Virus record (IMG/VR): IMGVR_UViG_2734482790_000004 | Direction: 5' to 3' (one strand) | Source: a virus | Taxonomy: Duplodnaviria; Heunggongvirae; Uroviricota; Caudoviricetes | Length of the DNA: 64,000 bases | Part shown: positions 10,937 through 43,153 of the stretch, piece after piece | How the letters are laid out: every line of letters starts with the position of its first letter | Numbering within the stretch: position 1 is the first letter of the stretch | Position numbers and translations under genes: made by a program | Notes under the pieces: generated by a model | Database searches by the model: none | Seen by the model: the letters and a program-made list of their open reading frames with translations, nothing else | Told to the model about the DNA's origin: nothing

Positions 10937-10956
10937 TTTTCTTACCCAATAAAATA

Positions 10957-34041: not shown

Positions 34042-35604
34042 ATGAAAATGACAAGTATTCAACAACGTGCAGAGCTTCATCGTCAAATCTGGCAAATTGC
34101 TAACGATGTCAGGGGTTCGGTCGATGGATGGGATTTTAAGCAATACGTTCTGGGCGCACTTTTCTACCGTTTTATCAGCGAAAATTTTTCCAGCTATATT
34201 GAAGCCGGTGATGACAGCATCTGTTATGCGAAACTGGATGACAGCGTAATTACTGATGACATTAAAGACGATGCCATCAAAACCAAAGGCTACTTCATCT
34301 ACCCAAGTCAGCTTTTCTGCAACGTAGCTGCGAAAGCAAATACCAATGACAGACTGAACGCAGATTTAAACAGCATCTTCGTTGCTATCGAAAGTTCTGC
34401 TTACGGTTATCCTTCAGAAGCAGACATCAAAGGTTTGTTTGCTGATTTCGATACCACCAGTAACCGCCTGGGTAACACCGTTAAGGATAAAAATGCCCGC
34501 CTGGCCGCGGTTCTGAAAGGGGTTGAAGGGTTAAAGCTTGGCGACTTTAACGAACATCAGATTGACCTGTTCGGCGATGCCTATGAGTTCCTGATTTCTA
34601 ACTATGCCGCGAATGCCGGTAAGTCAGGCGGCGAGTTCTTTACACCGCAGCACGTCTCTAAGCTGATTGCACAACTGGCTATGCACGGGCAGACCCACGT
34701 TAACAAAATCTACGACCCGGCAGCAGGTTCCGGTTCTCTGTTATTGCAGGCTAAAAAGCAGTTTGATGACCACATCATCGAAGAAGGTTTTTTTGGTCAG
34801 GAAATCAACCATACGACCTATAACCTGGCGCGTATGAACATGTTTTTGCACAACATCAACTACGACAAGTTTGATATCAAGCTGGGCAATACGCTGACTG
34901 AGCCGCACTTCAGAGATGAAAAACCGTTTGATGCCATCGTTTCTAACCCGCCGTATTCGGTGAAATGGATTGGCAGCGATGACCCGACGCTGATTAACGA
35001 TGAGCGTTTTGCCCCGGCTGGCGTTCTGGCCCCCAAATCCAAAGCTGACTTTGCGTTTGTATTACATGCGCTGAACTATCTTTCGGCCAAAGGTCGTGCT
35101 GCGATTGTCTGCTTCCCGGGTATTTTTTACCGTGGCGGCGCAGAGCAGAAAATCCGTCAGTATCTGGTCGATAATAACTATGTCGAAACCGTAATTTCAC
35201 TGGCTCCGAACCTGTTCTTTGGCACCACCATTGCCGTAAACATTCTGGTTCTGTCCAAACATAAAACGGATACCAACGTTCAGTTTATTGATGCCAGCGA
35301 ACTGTTCAAAAAAGAGACCAACAACAATATCCTGACCGATGCCCATATCGAACAGATTATGCAGGTATTTGCCAGCAAGGAAGATGTTGCTCATCTGGCA
35401 AAATCTGTCGCGTTCGAAGCCGTTGTCGCGAATGACTATAACCTGTCGGTGAGCAGCTATGTGGAAGCGAAAGATAACCGCGAAATTATCAATATTGCTG
35501 AACTGAATGCAGAGCTGAAAACCACGGTCAGCAAAATCGACCAGTTGCGTAAAGATATTGATGCAATTGTGGCTGAAATTGAAGGCTGCGAGGTGCAGAA
35601 ATGA
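34042..35604 (+). CDS. hsdM: type I (EcoR124-like, type IC) restriction-modification methyltransferase HsdM (520 aa)
   Basis: N6-adenine MTase motifs ([14 protein letters not shown]); N-terminus [22 protein letters not shown] as recalled for EcoR124I HsdM. Confidence 0.9.
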
Positions 35605-36807
35605 GCGAGTTGAGTTATCTGGAAAAATTGATGGATGGGGTTGAGGTTGAGTGGTTGCCACTCTCAAAAGTATTCAACTTAAGGAATGGTTATACACCGT
35701 CTAAAACTAAAAAAGAATTTTGGGCGAATGGTGATATACCTTGGTTCAGAATGGATGACATACGTGAAAATGGTAGAATTCTAGGGAATTCACTTCAAAA
35801 AAATTTCATCCTGCGCCGTAAAAGGGGGGAAACTATTTCCTGAAAATTCAATATTAATATCAACGTCGGCAACAATTGGTGAGCATGCTTTAATCACTGT
35901 ACCTCATCTAGCCAATCAAAGGTTTACATGTTTGGCTTTAAAAGAGTCTTATGCTGATTGCTTTGATATTAAATTTTTATTTTACTACTGTTTTTCTTTA
36001 GCTGAGTGGTGCCGAAAAAACACAACGATGTCCAGTTTTGCGTCTGTTGATATGGATGGATTCAAAAAATTTTTAATCCCTCGCCCCTGCCCGGATAATC
36101 CGGAAAAATCCCTTGCCATCCAGTCTGAAATCGTTCGGATTCTGGATAAGTTTACTGCACTTACCGCTGAGCTTACCGCTGAGCTTAATATGCGTAAAAA
36201 ACAGTACAACTACTATCGCGACCAGTTGTTGAGTTTTAAAGAGGGTGAGGTTGAGTGGAAGACTTTGGGAACATTTGCAGATAATTTTGATTCTCTTAGA
36301 AAACCAATAACTAGTGGATTAAGGGAGACTGGAAATATTCCCTATTATGGTGCGTCAGGCATTGTTGATTACGTAAAAGATTATATTTTTGATGATGACC
36401 TGTTATTAATTTCTGAAGATGGTGCGAATCTTATTGCAAGAAATACCCCTATAGCTTTTAGCATTAGCGGTAAAACGTGGGTGAATAATCATGCTCATGT
36501 ACTTAAATTCAAAAACTACACTGAACAAAAATTTGTTGAATATTACTTAAACAATATCAATCTTACGCCGTACATATCAGGAGCAGCCCAGCCAAAGCTA
36601 AATAAGAAAAACTTAGAAAGTATCCGTATTCCTAATCCATCACTAAAAGAAAAAGAGCGGATTGTTACTATTCTGGATAAATTCGACACCCTGACTAACT
36701 CCATCACCGAAGGTCTCCCGCGTGAAATCGAGTTACGCCAGAAACAATACGAGTACTATCGTGATTTACTGTTCAGTTTCCCAAAACCTGAAACAGTCAG
36801 TAATTAA
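35601..36807 (+). pseudogene. hsdS: type IC specificity subunit HsdS interrupted by a 1-nt frameshift within TRD1
   Basis: 80-aa ORF (frame 0) and 291-aa ORF (frame +1) are both open across 35785-35840, which contains an A7 run (35797-35803) and a G6 run (35824-35829); central and C-terminal conserved regions and a TAEL x2 repeat are intact. Confidence 0.85.
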
Positions 36808-36928
36808 TTGACCATTGCTACCGACCGGGCCACCTTAACATCCGGTCTGTATATAGACTATTTTTTACACGCTGGAAGTCGCCCTTAAAGCTCTTCCGGC
36901 CCTTGCCAGACGGCACAAAGGATGCGCT

Positions 36929-39900
36929 ATGACTCATCAGACATACACCATTGCTGAATCCAATAACTTTATCGTTCTTGATAAGTACATCAAAGCTGAG
37001 CCAACAGGCGACAGCTACCAGAGCGAATCGGACCTGGAACGTGAACTGATTCAGGACCTGCAAAATCAGGGCTATGAATTTATACCCGTAAAATCACAGT
37101 CAGCGATGCTGGCCAACGTTCGGGAACAGCTTCAGAGCCTCAATGGTGTGATGTTTAATGACAGCGAGTGGCGGCGCTTCACGGAGCAGTATCTGGACAA
37201 CCCCAGCGATGGTATTCTGGATAAAATCCGTAAAATCCATATCGACTATATTTGCGACTTTATTTTTGATGACGAGCGTCTTGAGAACATCTATCTGATA
37301 GATAAAAAGAATCTCATGCGCAATAAGGTGCAGATTATCCAGCAGTTTGAACAGGCAGGTTCTCACGCTAACCGTTATGACGTAACTATCCTGGTTAATG
37401 GCTTGCCACTGGTGCAAATCGAACTGAAAAAGCGCGGCGTGGCGATTCGTGAGGCTTTCAACCAGATACATCGTTACAGTAAAGAGAGTTTTAACAGCGA
37501 AAACTCCCTGTTTAAGTATCTGCAACTGTTTGTCATTTCTAACGGCACCGATACCCGTTATTTTGCCAACACAACAAAGCGCGATAAAAACAGTTTTGAC
37601 TTCACCATGAACTGGGCGAAATCAGACAATACACTGATTAAAGACCTCAAAGACTTTACCGCTACCTTTTTCCAGAAACATACTCTGCTTAATGTTCTGG
37701 TGAACTACAGCGTTTTTGACAGTAGTCAGACGCTACTGGTGATGCGACCGTACCAGATTGCCGCCACCGAACGAATCTTATGGAAAATCAACAGCTCCTA
37801 TAAAGCGAAAAACTGGTCTACCCCCGAAAGCGGTGGCTTTATCTGGCACACCACCGGTTCTGGTAAAACCCTCACCAGCTTTAAAGCCGCGCGGCTGGCA
37901 ACAGAACTGGACTTTATTGATAAAGTCTTCTTCGTGGTCGACAGGAAAGACCTCGATTACCAGACTATGAAGGAATATCAGCGTTTTTCGCCAGATAGTG
38001 TTAACGGCTCGGAAAATACCGCAGGTCTAAAACGAAATCTGGATAAGGACGATAACAAAATTATCGTCACCACTATTCAGAAACTTAATAACCTGATGAA
38101 AGCAGAAAGCGACCTGCCTGTATACAATCAGCAAGTGGTGTTTATATTTGATGAATGCCACCGCAGCCAGTTTGGAGAAGCGCAGAAAAACCTGAAGAAG
38201 AAATTCAAACGCTATTATCAGTTTGGTTTTACCGGCACTCCTATTTTCCCGGAAAACGCTTTAGGTTCAGAAACGACCGCCAGCGTATTTGGTCGTGAAT
38301 TGCATTCGTATGTAATTACCGATGCGATTCGAGATGAAAAAGTGCTTAAATTCAAGGTGGACTACAACGATGTGCGGCCACAGTTTAAGTCTTTAGAGAC
38401 AGAAACTGACGAGAAAAAACTAAGTGCGGCTGAAAATCAGCAGGCGTTTCTTCATCCCATGCGTATTCAGGAAATCACGCAATATATTCTGAATAATTTC
38501 CGCCAGAAAACTCACCGTACCTTCCCTGGCTCAAAAGGTTTTAATGCTATGTTGGCAGTGAGCAGCGTGGATGCCGCGAAAGCCTATTATGCGACGTTTA
38601 AACGGTTACAAGAAGAAGCCGCTAATAAATCGGCTACCTATAAACCGCTGCGTATTGCGACAATCTTCTCCTTTGCCGCCAATGAAGAACAAAATGCCAT
38701 TGGTGAAATTTCCGATGAAACTTTTGATACCAGCGCAATGGACAGCAGTGCTAAAGAGTTTCTGGACGCTGCAATTCGTGAATATAACAGCCATTTTAAA
38801 ACTAACTTTAGCACCGACAGTAACGGTTTTCAGAACTACTATCGTGATTTAGCCCAGCGGGTTAAAAATCAGGATATCGATCTGCTAATTGTCGTGGGGA
38901 TGTTTTTAACCGGCTTCGATGCTCCAACATTGAACACGCTATTCGTCGATAAAAACTTGCGTTTTCACGGCCTGATGCAGGCATTTTCCCGCACCAACCG
39001 TATTTATGATGCAACTAAAACCTTCGGTAATATCGTCACTTTCCGGGATCTGGAACGCTCAACTATTGATGCCATAACGCTGTTTGGTGACAAAAACACC
39101 AAAAATGTGGTGTTAGAAAAGAGTTATACAGAGTATATGGAAGGCTTTACTGATGCTACTACTGGTGAAGCTAAACGCGGCTTCATGACAGTAGTTTCAG
39201 AACTGGAACAACGGTTCCCTGACCCTACCAGTATTGAAAGTGAAAAAGAGAAGAAAGACTTCGTTAAACTGTTTGGCGAATACCTGCGTGCCGAGAACAT
39301 CCTGCAAAACTATGATGAATTTGCCACGCTAAAAGCCCTGCAACAAATCGATCTTAGCGATCCTGTTGCGGTAGAAAAATTCAAAGCAGAACATTATGTG
39401 GATGATGAAAAGTTCGCTGAATTGCAAACAATTCGTCTCCCTGCTGATCGCAAGATTCAGGATTATCGTTCTGCCTATAACGATATTCGCGACTGGCAGC
39501 GCCGTGAGAAAGAAGCTGAGAAAAAAGAGAAATCAACCACTGACTGGGATGACGTAGTTTTTGAGGTCGATTTGCTGAAGTCTCAGGAAATAAACCTGGA
39601 TTATATCCTTGGACTGATTTTCGAACACAACAGACAAAATAAAGGCAAGGGCGAAATGATCGAAGAGGTCAAACGCTTAATTCGTTCAAGCCTAGGGAAC
39701 CGTGCTAAAGAGGGCCTGGTGGTCGATTTTATTCAGCAAACGAACCTGGATGATTTACCAGACAAAGCCAGTATCATTGAGGCATTCTTTACGTTTGCTC
39801 AACGCGAACAGCAACGTGAAGCAGAAGCATTGATAAAAGAAGAAAATCTCAATGAAGAGGCAGCAAAACGCTATATTCGCACGTCTTTAAAACGCGAATA

Positions 39901-40045
39901 CGCCACCGAAAATGGCACAGAATTAAACGAAACATTACCAAAACTTAGTCCGTTGAATCCGCAATATAAAACGAAAAAACAGGCAGTTTTCCAGAAAATC
40001 GTCTCGTTTATTGAGAAGTTTAAAGGCGTAGGCGGAAAAATATAG
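36929..40045 (+). CDS. hsdR: type I restriction endonuclease subunit HsdR (1038 aa)
   Basis: Superfamily-2 helicase motifs ([12 protein letters not shown]) and a 1038-aa length matching EcoR124I HsdR. Confidence 0.9.
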
Positions 40046-40123
40046 CCCAATTCGTGTTTTTCTTGCGGGTTCTTAATTAAACCCGCATGATACCATGGGG
40101 TTCCAAATGGCTAATATACTCCC

Positions 40124-40210
40124 TTACCCATGCGCGACGATGCCGCCAAAAGTGATAGAGAACAGCCAGAAATAGATCGCGGCCATAATGATTTTGAATG
40201 CCGTGTTCAT
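40124..40210 (-). CDS. small hydrophobic peptide (28 aa, MNTAFKIIMAAIYFWLFSITFGGIVAHG)
   Basis: Below the ORF-track size cutoff; AGGAG RBS 8 nt upstream; preceded by a C1 operator-like site and a perfect palindrome. Confidence 0.35.
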   Translation of the reverse strand: MNTAFKIIMAAIYFWLFSITFGGIVAHG

Positions 40211-40292
40211 ATTTTCAGCTCCTGTGATTGATTGGATACATGCCGCGCCTTGCGGCATGTTTTTATTTTCACTTTCTCTGTTTTAAAAATCA

Positions 40293-40309
40293 AGATTTAT
40301 TAGAGCAAT
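40293..40309 (-). promoter_or_regulatory. C1 operator-like site (AGATTTATTAGAGCAAT, 16/17)
   Basis: Near-consensus operator upstream of the small hydrophobic ORF. Confidence 0.55.
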
Positions 40310-40815
40310 TATTGTTGATGAAGAAGCGCATTTTCATATTCCCTGACCATTAACGTAAGTACGCCGTGACTCCTGAAAACACGCGCCACTTCAATCTTAT
40401 CTTCCAGCGCGAACGCAATTTTACTTAGACCAATTTTCTTCAGGAGATCAATCTTTGCAGGGCCGTCATTTCTGTCATCGGTGGCAGGACGCATAGATAG
40501 CAAAGGCTCAGCCCCATTTGTTACGTGCTTACGCAACCAAGCTCGTGTTTTATCCCTGGCTATCTCACAGCGCCCGGTTACAAACCAGAGAGTGTAAATG
40601 CTGGACAACTGGCGCACCATATCAATAACTGGAGTGATGGGAGCATCAGTGTCACAGGCAAGGTTAAACTCGTTCCAGTGCTCTGTTAATGCACCTTTGC
40701 CAGGTGGTGGAAGTAAATGCAGCCTGTCTTCCGTTGCCTCTGATATTGTTCCATCAATATCAACTATGACGATATACGGACGTTCCTGGTGTGCGTGTTT
40801 ATTGAAAATACTCAA
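40309..40815 (-). CDS. HAD-superfamily phosphatase-like protein (168 aa)
   Basis: N-terminal DIDGT motif characteristic of HAD phosphatases. Confidence 0.5.
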   Translation of the reverse strand: MSIFNKHAHQERPYIVIVDIDGTISEATEDRLHLLPPPGKGALTEHWNEFNLACDTDAPITPVIDMVRQLSSIYTLWFVTGRCEIARDKTRAWLRKHVTNGAEPLLSMRPATDDRNDGPAKIDLLKKIGLSKIAFALEDKIEVARVFRSHGVLTLMVREYENALLHQQ

Positions 40816-40887
40816 ATGCCCTCCTCATTGGACGAAAAAAATGCTGGTGGGCGCACTCCACCAGCATTAAAAGTGACACTGTAACTG

Positions 40888-42451: not shown

Positions 42452-43153
42452 TTATTCTGATTCTCGCTCAAAAAACGAGCTGATAAGGGGAAGCCAATCC
42501 TCTGACACTTCGCGAGGTCGCGGTTTGCCGTGGAAAAAGATTATTCGGCAGTCTTTTGGTAATGCCCCATTCCCCCTGGAGTAACGCGCGCTCGCATATT
42601 TCGAACCAGGTTCCACAACATCGGCCTTGTAACTTACAAACCATCCTGGATACAGATCCTGAAATGCTGGTGTATCATCGCCCATAACCTTTCGTAAGAA
42701 CCCCTGGTCACCCCAGCACTCAGTAGTGACACAACGAGAAATCCAACCTTCCGGATCTTGCCAGAATGAACTCCAGATATGCGCTTTAACACTATTTGGT
42801 ATCCACAGGGCACCGCTGCCACGATATTGTGGATGGTAAAAATCCCTAAGCATGGTGAAGCTGGTTGGTGGATGCTCTAGGATTGGGCGTATATCACCGG
42901 CAATAACCGTGTCCAAATCCAGATAGAACAGATCATCGGTTATATCCGGTCGGAACAACTCGATTTTCGCCCACCAGCCACGGCACTTTTGCCACTGGTT
43001 GATCAATGGGACAACTTTGACGCCAGGTACATGTAAACGCTTCAGGTCTGTCAGGCAAATAATTTCATAGCCTTTTGGCAGTTGATTAACCAGCCACTGC
43101 ACATCGGAAGCGTTATAGTCACCACCAGAGCGAAAAACTAAAGCAATCTTCAT
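42452..43153 (-). CDS. putative nucleotide-sugar glycosyltransferase-like protein (233 aa)
   Basis: DxD-like LDLDTV motif in a GT-A-like context; assignment tentative. Confidence 0.4.

Follow-up and report, generated by a model that had tools for sequence, protein, structure and literature searches.

What, if anything, is encoded directly behind Op88, a C1-controlled operator of phage P1 and its relatives? The question is raised by the virus record IMGVR_UViG_2734482790_000004, a stretch of 64,000 nucleotides (nt) that was analysed as a whole and is called the window here, in which a minus-strand micro open reading frame (micro-ORF) of 28 codons follows the operator. The window is a P1-like phage-plasmid, and its positions 40121-40500 are 98-99% identical to P1 84102-84481 (megablast). 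In the P1 record AF234172, this stretch is annotated with the end of pap, the operator OpmgT (84293-84309), the predicted promoters P1pmgT and P2pmgT, and pmgT from 84488; the annotation passes from the operator directly to pmgT and lists neither the 28-codon ORF, which occupies P1 84392-84478 and ends 9 nt before the pmgT ATG, nor the hairpin that precedes it. The answer favoured here, with a probability of roughly 0.62, is that the micro-ORF is a genuine, unnamed early gene, whose product would be a C1-repressed single-pass inner-membrane micro-protein and which would form the first cistron of the Op88/OpmgT operon of P1-like phage-plasmids.

It is important to separate the old from the new in this answer. 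In the control region one recognises the C1 operator Op88/OpmgT of P1 and the predicted pmgT promoters, and the operator, the promoters and the junction between P1 DNA and the hsd restriction cassette that borders the micro-ORF in the window are all already known; the P1 annotation of Lobocka et al. from 2004 is said to contain the Op88/OpmgT operator together with the predicted P1pmgT and P2pmgT. As far as the sequences indicate, the new points are the conserved first-cistron status of the micro-ORF and the structure-conserved 5′ hairpin. A literature search with the terms 'Op88' and 'pmgT' retrieved no paper describing the micro-ORF, and neither ribosome profiling nor proteomics of P1 was found in it. 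A few records list the frame as 'membrane protein' or 'hypothetical protein', usually with a wrong start that gives 44 amino acids (aa), and it is missing from most annotations of the Prokaryotic Genome Annotation Pipeline (PGAP) as well as from the P1 reference.

The micro-ORF and its predicted product

The micro-ORF occupies positions 40124..40210 on the minus strand, with its ATG at 40208-40210 and its TAA at 40124-40126, and encodes the 28-aa peptide MNTAFKIIMAAIYFWLFSITFGGIVAHG. The original prediction for this locus had described a near-consensus C1 operator matching at 16 of 17 positions, a perfect palindrome with an aaggc loop, and behind them a minus-strand ORF with an AGGAG ribosome-binding site and a product consisting essentially of a single transmembrane helix. 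All of these elements are present, the operator at 40293-40309 on the minus strand and the palindrome at 40239-40259, and the codon analysis described below marks the ORF as a protein-coding gene. Derepression upon prophage induction, also foreseen, would be the expected behaviour, since the ORF stands directly behind a known C1 operator and promoter, and the conservation in other P1-like genomes that had been suggested as a check is borne out by a frame kept in six lineages.

The product is predicted to be a single-pass membrane micro-protein with one hydrophobic helix. The best 19-residue Kyte-Doolittle window of the 28-aa peptide covers residues 7-25 with a mean of 2.10, and the corresponding means range from 1.97 to 2.36 over all lineages. 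In an AlphaFold2 model of a 46-aa homologue, the helix extends over residues 2-27; the mean score in the predicted local distance difference test (pLDDT) is 84 and 90 in the blocks covering residues 1-20 but falls to 63 over residues 21-30, and the model defines the tail poorly. The P1 peptide ends in ...IVAHG and has no charged residue after K6.

The 28-aa sequence is 100% identical in P1, P7, SJ46, RCS47 and others, and no internal stop was found among 80 P1-lineage copies of the micro-ORF. Matches occur in 873 plasmids of PLSDB and in 885 of 5426 complete Escherichia coli genomes, 564 of which carry the whole module. An IS1-truncated remnant found beside hsdR in IncF-type plasmids, as in NZ_CP018111 (L004, 3940-4110), makes up about 324 of the 873 plasmid matches and, among the 885 E. 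coli genomes, about 320. This remnant comprises codons 4-28 plus the junction; the IS1 end abuts codon 4, and operator, promoter and start codon are absent, which leaves it a dead piece carried along with hsdR.

Conservation across lineages and the signature of a translated gene

Searches by nucleotide similarity do not reach far beyond P1 itself. When the phage collection was searched with megablast and blastn, all relatives retrieved were at least 96.7% identical across the region, and a locus search based on PmgS returned only loci at least 99% identical among its best 80 hits; P1, P7, SJ46, RCS47 and their kin are thus too similar to be informative on selection. Divergent lineages were found by tblastn with the peptide, by scans for peptide and DNA patterns, and in the protein database. 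With these included, homologues of 28-65 aa occupy one shared position in P1-like phage-plasmids of six lineages, with 46-65 aa in the five non-P1 lineages, and in every lineage the micro-ORF is the first reading frame behind the operator.

The P1 lineage, which includes the window, P1 and its kin, has the 28-aa form given above. A group of Salmonella plasmids (NZ_CP077703 and relatives) encodes MHTVFKLAMAAFYIWIFTIVFTGIAKATPVNASEVGVRTIYCDLGE (46 aa), IMG/VR contig 2773857937 and one Logan contig encode MNTAFKLAMAAFYFWIFCIAFNGLVKAAPTLQVIYHNDAPASNQEGSF (48 aa, with a 65-aa variant), Cronobacter phage JK004 encodes MHLIFKLAITAFYAWMLTVVITSFKPDANMKASRYLGNLSASYDCDQQGDDSL (53 aa), and two sub-lineages of Logan contigs encode MQVLIKLAVTAFFVWLF... 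(53 aa). P1, the Salmonella plasmids, JK004, the IMG/VR contig and the Logan contigs all share one order of elements, namely ppp-pmgQ-pmgR-pmgS-(pap)-operator-promoter-hairpin-CAATCA-GGAG-ATG-ORF. Residues M1, K6, A11 and W15 do not vary at all and F5 and Y13 hardly do, and a C-terminal tail is conserved within the group formed by JK004 and the loci L176 and L178.

Nucleotide identity of the micro-ORF between P1 and the other lineages is only 51-68%, and yet the frame, the Shine-Dalgarno sequence (SD), the ATG and the hydrophobic pattern persist. In a Nei-Gojobori count over 24 gap-free codons, the proportion of synonymous differences (pS) between lineages is 0.6-0.9, i.e. near saturation, and that of replacement differences (pN) is 0.16-0.45. 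P1 differs from L095 and L006 with a pS of 0.78-0.89 and a pN of 0.20-0.26, and for L095 against L006 the ratio of the corresponding rates (dN/dS) is about 0.1. Close pairs show 4:0, 2:0 and 5:2 synonymous to replacement changes, and variable sites are distributed over codon positions 1, 2 and 3 as 19/8/21. The other frames behave differently, as frame +1 contains stops in most lineages and frame +2 has a pN/pS of at least 0.94. In the Salmonella lineage, all replacements fall in the tail and none in the helix. Synonymous change thus exceeds replacement change in this frame only, as is characteristic of a translated gene.

The comparison also bears on where translation begins. In the program-made list of ORFs for the window, the frame appears in a 44-aa form whose initiating ATG falls within the hairpin. 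Outside the P1 lineage, an in-frame stop is followed by no possible start before the ATG that stands behind the SD, and the conserved start is therefore that of the 28-aa form and not that of the 44-aa form. Within the P1 lineage there are few variants; they cluster at the recombination junction at the 3′ end of the frame, and the recombinant L089 inflates the replacement counts.

Beyond P1-like elements, the peptide has no apparent relatives. Searches of Pfam, NCBIfam, PHROG and PADLOC gave no significant match, and a profile search of 1.84 billion representative proteins produced 14 hits, 11 of which belong to the family itself or to P1-type junction variants; the remaining three are long proteins with multiple partial matches, so that this search revealed no relatives outside P1-like elements.

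The operator and promoter

The operator Op88/OpmgT, ATTGCTCTAATAAATCT, occupies 40293..40309 on the minus strand, matches the consensus ATTGCTCTAATAAATTT at 16 of 17 positions and corresponds to the annotated P1 OpmgT, which AF234172 labels as a monovalent C1-controlled operator, formerly Op88. It begins on the final base of the stop codon of pap, the last gene of the upstream Op86 operon, which lies at 40309..40815 on the minus strand, codes for a HAD-type polynucleotide 3′-phosphatase (PF25109 HAD_PNKP in relatives) and serves as a syntenic marker. The P1 region has the same operator at the same position at the pap stop codon, with 98-99% nucleotide identity, and differs from the window in that the latter lacks pmgT and has hsd in its place. 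A C1-type operator is found at this position in all six lineages.

Directly adjoining it is a predicted σ70 promoter, P1pmgT (40265..40293, minus strand), composed of a -35 element TTGATT (40288-40293) sharing its first base with the end of the operator, a 17-nt spacer and a -10 element GAAAAT (40265-40270). The phase of these elements is conserved in seq­uences representing all lineages (seven sequences, six lineages): a 17-base-pair operator is followed by a -35 TTGATT (TTGTTT in JK004), a 17-nt spacer, a -10 of the form nAnAAT, 5-7 nt and a GC-rich stem. A scan with the promoter consensus gave another weak candidate, ATGAAA-18-AATAAT, which is not conserved in the other lineages.

Across the window, C1-operator-like sequences are plentiful, with 16 such 17-mers at up to three mismatches compared with 0.25 expected from shuffled sequences. 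They include sites at 10956, 27171/27254, 42385/42434, 47822/47833 and 59768, some of them paired or overlapping; the pair 42385/42434 lies just outside a pmgQ-like ORF (42452-43153, minus strand), where P1 has Op86a/b, and the sites 47822 and 47833 overlap on opposite strands. Within the stretch that is annotated in P1 as the Op86-controlled pmgR-pmgS-pap, a terminator-like hairpin of 11 pairs with a T-run is found between pmgS and pap (window 40840-40868, minus strand).

A conserved hairpin at the predicted 5′ end

The palindrome between promoter and SD, CATGCCGC-AAGGC-GCGGCATG, extends over 40239..40259 on the minus strand, begins 5 nt after the -10 element and forms a stem of 8 base pairs with a 5-nt loop at the predicted 5′ end of the messenger RNA (mRNA). 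A role as an additional regulatory operator was considered and rejected; the palindrome is instead a hairpin conserved in its structure, at the predicted 5′ end of the transcript. In all six lineages, a hairpin at this place is the minimum-energy fold, with the SD and the ATG unpaired. Its sequence differs per lineage while the pairing is kept: of 9 pairs compared among the five sequences from outside the P1 lineage, 5 are changed on both sides, and 86.7% of the hairpin cells are paired as opposed to 18-47% when the partners are slid by 1-3 columns. The covariation score of the hairpin was reached by 1 of 500 shuffles, and even the close relatives L176 and L178 differ by a G-C to A-T swap in the stem. 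P1 and its kin have a hairpin of their own at the corresponding place. P1 was left out of these pair counts because MAFFT failed to put its 5-nt-loop hairpin in register with the hairpins with 9-nt loops, so that for P1 the evidence comes from folding. The 9-nt loop of the non-P1 lineages is itself semi-conserved (ATGCTTTCA, GCGCTTCCA, ACGCTATCA, GCACTACCA) while the stem covaries.

If transcription starts 6-8 nt after the -10 element, the hairpin would stand at the very 5′ end of the mRNA. Stem-loops at the 5′ terminus shield E. coli mRNAs from 5′-end-dependent decay, and stabilising stem-loops of the type found in the ompA 5′ untranslated region (UTR) were reportedly described by Emory, Bouvet and Belasco in 1992. 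The arrangement in the window shares with the ompA type a GC-rich hairpin close to the 5′ end, here a predicted one, with an unstructured ribosome-binding region behind it, but it differs in that the hairpin of the P1 lineage also has a T-run on the opposite strand and hence the pattern of a terminator.

After the palindrome, the minus strand reads TATCCAATCAATCAC and then AGGAG. This interval holds the leader motif CAATCAATCA (40225..40234, minus strand), of which CAATCA is found in all lineages in the alignments; the form CAATCA(ATCA) is kept at equivalent positions in L006, L007, L095, L176 and L178. The SD itself, AGGAG, lies at 40219..40223 on the minus strand, 8 nt before the ATG; every lineage has GGAG there, with 5-8 nt between it and the ATG, and the predicted folds leave it unpaired. 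Rfam yielded no family above threshold for the region, the nearest being a match to GcvB of 20.3 bits against a cut-off of 42 bits (E 0.03); this match covers window 40183-40266 on the plus strand, spans the terminator-like hairpin, which probably gives rise to it, and is most likely due to chance.

The hsd cassette and convergent transcription

P1 homology resumes at window position 40121, 3 nt past the stop codon of the micro-ORF, and the sequence to the left of it, with hsdR, is non-P1 DNA; the junction between P1 DNA on the right and a type IC hsd cassette on the left thus falls at 40121..40123, 1-3 nt past the stop, as located by megablast to P1. The cassette has taken, in inverted orientation, the place of the block from pmgT to humD and borders on phd/doc, an arrangement also seen in phage phi456; the peptide would thus be the sole cistron left on the Op88 transcript in the window. 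The micro-ORF had been placed at the right-hand edge of the hsd cassette, and its position there is correct; it is not, however, a member of the cassette but core P1 DNA, which is present in P1 and in hsd-free relatives.

The gene nearest the junction is hsdR of the type I restriction cassette (36929..40045, plus strand), convergent with the micro-ORF and homologous to a 3117-nt gene annotated as 'HsdR family type I site-specific deoxyribonuclease'; it is followed by about 75 nt and then by P1 sequence beginning at the stop codon of the micro-ORF. Among the known type IC hsd loci (EcoR124, EcoDXXI, EcoprrI), the window has the same hsdR/P1 junction as R124/3 and EcoDXXI, and in the P1 record positions 84263-84482 are 96-98% identical to the sequence downstream of hsdR in these two. 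Tyndall et al. (1997, Mol Microbiol 23:729, cited in PMC12707154) are said to have noted P1 DNA on the flanks of type IC hsd loci. The interval between hsdM and hsdR is about 1.2 kilobases shorter in the window (35604-36929) than in phi456 (L003, 3469-6028), where it contains three ORFs; the window has room for little more than hsdS.

The only terminator-like site on the plus strand downstream of hsdR is the hairpin of the Op88 leader, read in the other direction: a stem at 40238-40260 is followed by the T-run TTTTATTTTC at 40261-40270, as judged by pattern match, so that 40238-40270 could terminate the convergent hsdR transcript. The T-run is the AT-rich -10/discriminator region of the Op88 promoter as seen from the opposite strand. 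L176 and L178 have no such run and the other non-P1 lineages only a weak one, which suggests that service as a terminator is a secondary use peculiar to the P1 lineage. If hsdR transcription does end at about 40270, its 3′ UTR would measure about 215 nt and would be antisense to the whole micro-ORF, including SD and start. Use of the Op88-leader hairpin as the hsdR terminator would also explain why a P1 fragment travels with the type IC hsd cassette.

In the other direction, no terminator-like site was found on the minus strand in the roughly 320 nt scanned downstream of the micro-ORF (39800-40124), and the Op88 transcript would accordingly be predicted to run antisense into hsdR. A second palindrome, GCGGGTT-cttaatta-AACCCGC, lies at 40065-40086, on the part of the junction region that belongs to the cassette and 20 nt after the hsdR stop; since its T-run precedes it on the plus strand, it is no canonical terminator in either direction. 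The same palindrome is found in the IncF remnant (L004 4121-4142).

Variable cargo behind a constant first cistron

Judged from the loci compared, the micro-ORF is the constant first cistron, behind which the cargo varies. Among 79 P1-like loci from IMG/VR, about 60 have a pmgT-type gene directly after the ORF and 18 have an inverted hsd cassette. In P1, the micro-ORF and pmgT are separated by a 9-nt gap containing the purine-rich GGGGGA; in JK004, L095, L176 and L178, its stop overlaps with the start of the next gene (ATGA or TGATG). The coupled gene of the non-P1 lineages (L007 3159-3473, L095 1956-2273, L176 3159-3473) codes for a protein of about 105 aa with a weak match to MarR-type winged-helix proteins, and a comparison of P1 PmgT with this protein revealed no homology.

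A number of rare alleles (P0009, P0012, P0013, P0014, P0019, P0020, P0030 and P0036) are fused after codons 18-28 to unrelated tails, one of which is a DUF551 protein, and these fusions indicate recombination junctions inside the 3′ end of the micro-ORF. The idea that many independent junctions directly after the stop codon would be a sign of selection was mostly dropped, since there are essentially two junction types plus the rare fusions within the ORF.

Proposed mode of action

The following sequence of events would be consistent with the arrangement described. In the lysogen, C1 bound at Op88 would cover the -35 element of the promoter and keep the gene silent. Upon induction or infection, transcription would start at the foot of the GC-rich hairpin, 5-7 nt past the -10 element; expression is expected to be early, as can be gathered from the position of the C1 operator. 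The stem-loop at the extreme 5′ end may protect the mRNA from 5′-end-dependent decay, the unstructured SD and ATG would be translated, and the peptide would insert into the inner membrane as one helix, probably with the N-terminus inside and K6 at the cytoplasmic face. The acidic, Cys-containing tail of the longer homologues would then lie outside. In the ancestral layout, translation of the micro-ORF would hand ribosomes on to the next gene.

The invariance of K6, A11 and W15 and the near-invariance of F5 and Y13 point to a specific contact in the membrane rather than to bulk hydrophobicity, and this contact might be with a host or phage membrane partner or consist in self-association. In these respects, the micro-protein is reminiscent of the small regulators MgrB, AcrZ, MgtS and MgtR, which likewise have fewer than 50 aa, one helix and few strictly conserved helix residues. 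The likeness is one of kind only: there is no sequence relationship, and the micro-protein is phage-encoded and repressor-controlled. By this likeness to small inner-membrane regulators, a specific membrane partner would be the expected mode of action, and a function as a modulator, which the original prediction had listed among its suggestions, is possible.

A bolder version of this proposal would make the peptide a dedicated early-lytic effector, which would bind and modulate a host inner-membrane protein, or else transiently lower the membrane potential, at the switch to lytic growth; in the hsd derivatives, derepression of Op88 would in addition send antisense transcription through hsdR, so that induction would damp the restriction subunit. 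We regard this version as a long shot; if true, the phage immunity switch would be coupled to restriction control.

Alternative explanations

Could the peptide be dispensable and only its translation matter? As a leader peptide without function of its own, it would load ribosomes on the next cistron or keep the leader free of Rho or RNase, in keeping with the stop-start overlaps or gaps of 6-9 nt seen in every lineage with same-strand cargo, with a length that varies as widely as 28-65 aa, with the missing tail of the P1 form and with variation within lineages that shows no clear constraint. We nevertheless consider it unlikely, because selection is purifying in a frame-specific manner, K6, A11, W15 and the hydrophobic helix are kept across saturated synonymous divergence, and the tail is conserved in the group of JK004, L176 and L178. 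Moreover, hsd-type elements, in which no further cistron follows, still carry an intact ORF (18 of 79 loci), though these may be recent events. That the frame is no gene at all, but a by-product of some conserved non-coding role played by the pmgT leader, be it as an RNA structure, an element close to the promoter or a site of recombination, is the least probable explanation of those weighed here: its very short length, its place at a recombination junction and its absence from the curated P1 annotation and most PGAP annotations would fit, but a random frame would not be expected to retain its SD, ATG and hydrophobic pattern at 51-68% identity with a 19/8/21 distribution of changes while the alternative frames are closed, and neither a stable RNA structure over the ORF was predicted nor an Rfam family found above threshold.

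Toxicity, which had been put forward as one possible role, deserves closer attention. The peptide would depolarise or permeabilise the inner membrane upon derepression, and in hsd elements the convergent hsdR 3′ UTR would serve as its antisense antidote. Type I toxins such as Ibs, ShoB, TisB and DinQ cover in their size and hydrophobicity the range of the 28-aa peptide, and with this class (Hok, Ibs, ShoB, TisB, DinQ, Ldr, ZorO) the micro-protein shares its length, a hydrophobic single helix and tight repression; in the window, the micro-ORF is also fully overlapped, together with SD and start, by a predicted convergent transcript if that transcript ends at 40238-40270. Unlike these toxins, it has no cognate antisense RNA gene, stands first in an operon and is controlled by a protein repressor at its promoter. 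A scan of the window alone, between 39800 and 41000, detected no promoter-like site on the opposite strand, P1 and non-P1 neighbours are co-directional, and only the hsd-type arrangement supplies a transcript convergent with the micro-ORF, while most other lineages lack hsd and hence this transcript. No toxin or defence family and no PADLOC model matched, the ORF heads a multi-gene early operon and not a stand-alone cassette, its conserved aromatic and Lys positions suit a defined contact better than generic membrane damage, and P1 is already self-stabilised by the adjacent phd-doc. A type I toxin-antitoxin system was therefore rejected for this locus, and a toxin-like action in the wider sense appears decidedly improbable. 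The suggestion of a holin-like protein fares no better. Holins are late genes in lysis cassettes and have a charged C-terminal domain; the likeness to them, P1 LydA included, is limited to being a small phage membrane protein. There is no holin match, the head of a C1-controlled early operon between pap and pmgT is unlike a late lysis cassette, and the P1 form has no charged C-terminal tail, so that this candidate was discarded as well.

The interpretation of the micro-ORF as an early gene for a functional membrane micro-protein has weaknesses of its own. Codons 1-19 carry three replacement and no synonymous variants within the P1 lineage, and overall site counts there are near neutral. P1 is separated from the JK004 and L176 lineages by a pN as high as about 0.45, so that strict conservation is limited to a handful of residues; having no tail of the kind that other lineages conserve, the P1 form could be partly decayed; and the confinement of the family to P1-like elements means that no function can be transferred from relatives. 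Finally, P1-like phage-plasmids have eight hypervariable regions, among them the pmgT-humD block (PMC9603915), and pmgT and its neighbours were non-essential in a CRISPR interference screen (PMC10695390), so that any role is probably accessory.

Implications for P1-like phage-plasmids

Few phages have been annotated as thoroughly as P1, a standard tool of genetics, whose C1-controlled early operons are few in number; the locus matters because a conserved gene at the head of one of them is unnamed and absent from the reference annotation. The module occurs in about one sixth of complete E. coli genomes and is intact in about one tenth, at the edge of a hypervariable cargo region with restriction systems, and it offers a simple experimental target. 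Recognition of the conserved start also corrects the automatic annotations that begin the ORF inside the hairpin and thereby arrive at the 44-aa form. The micro-protein is a narrowly distributed small phage/bacterial membrane protein and not a new kind of system; the result is thus of modest novelty and amounts to a correction of the map of a classic phage.

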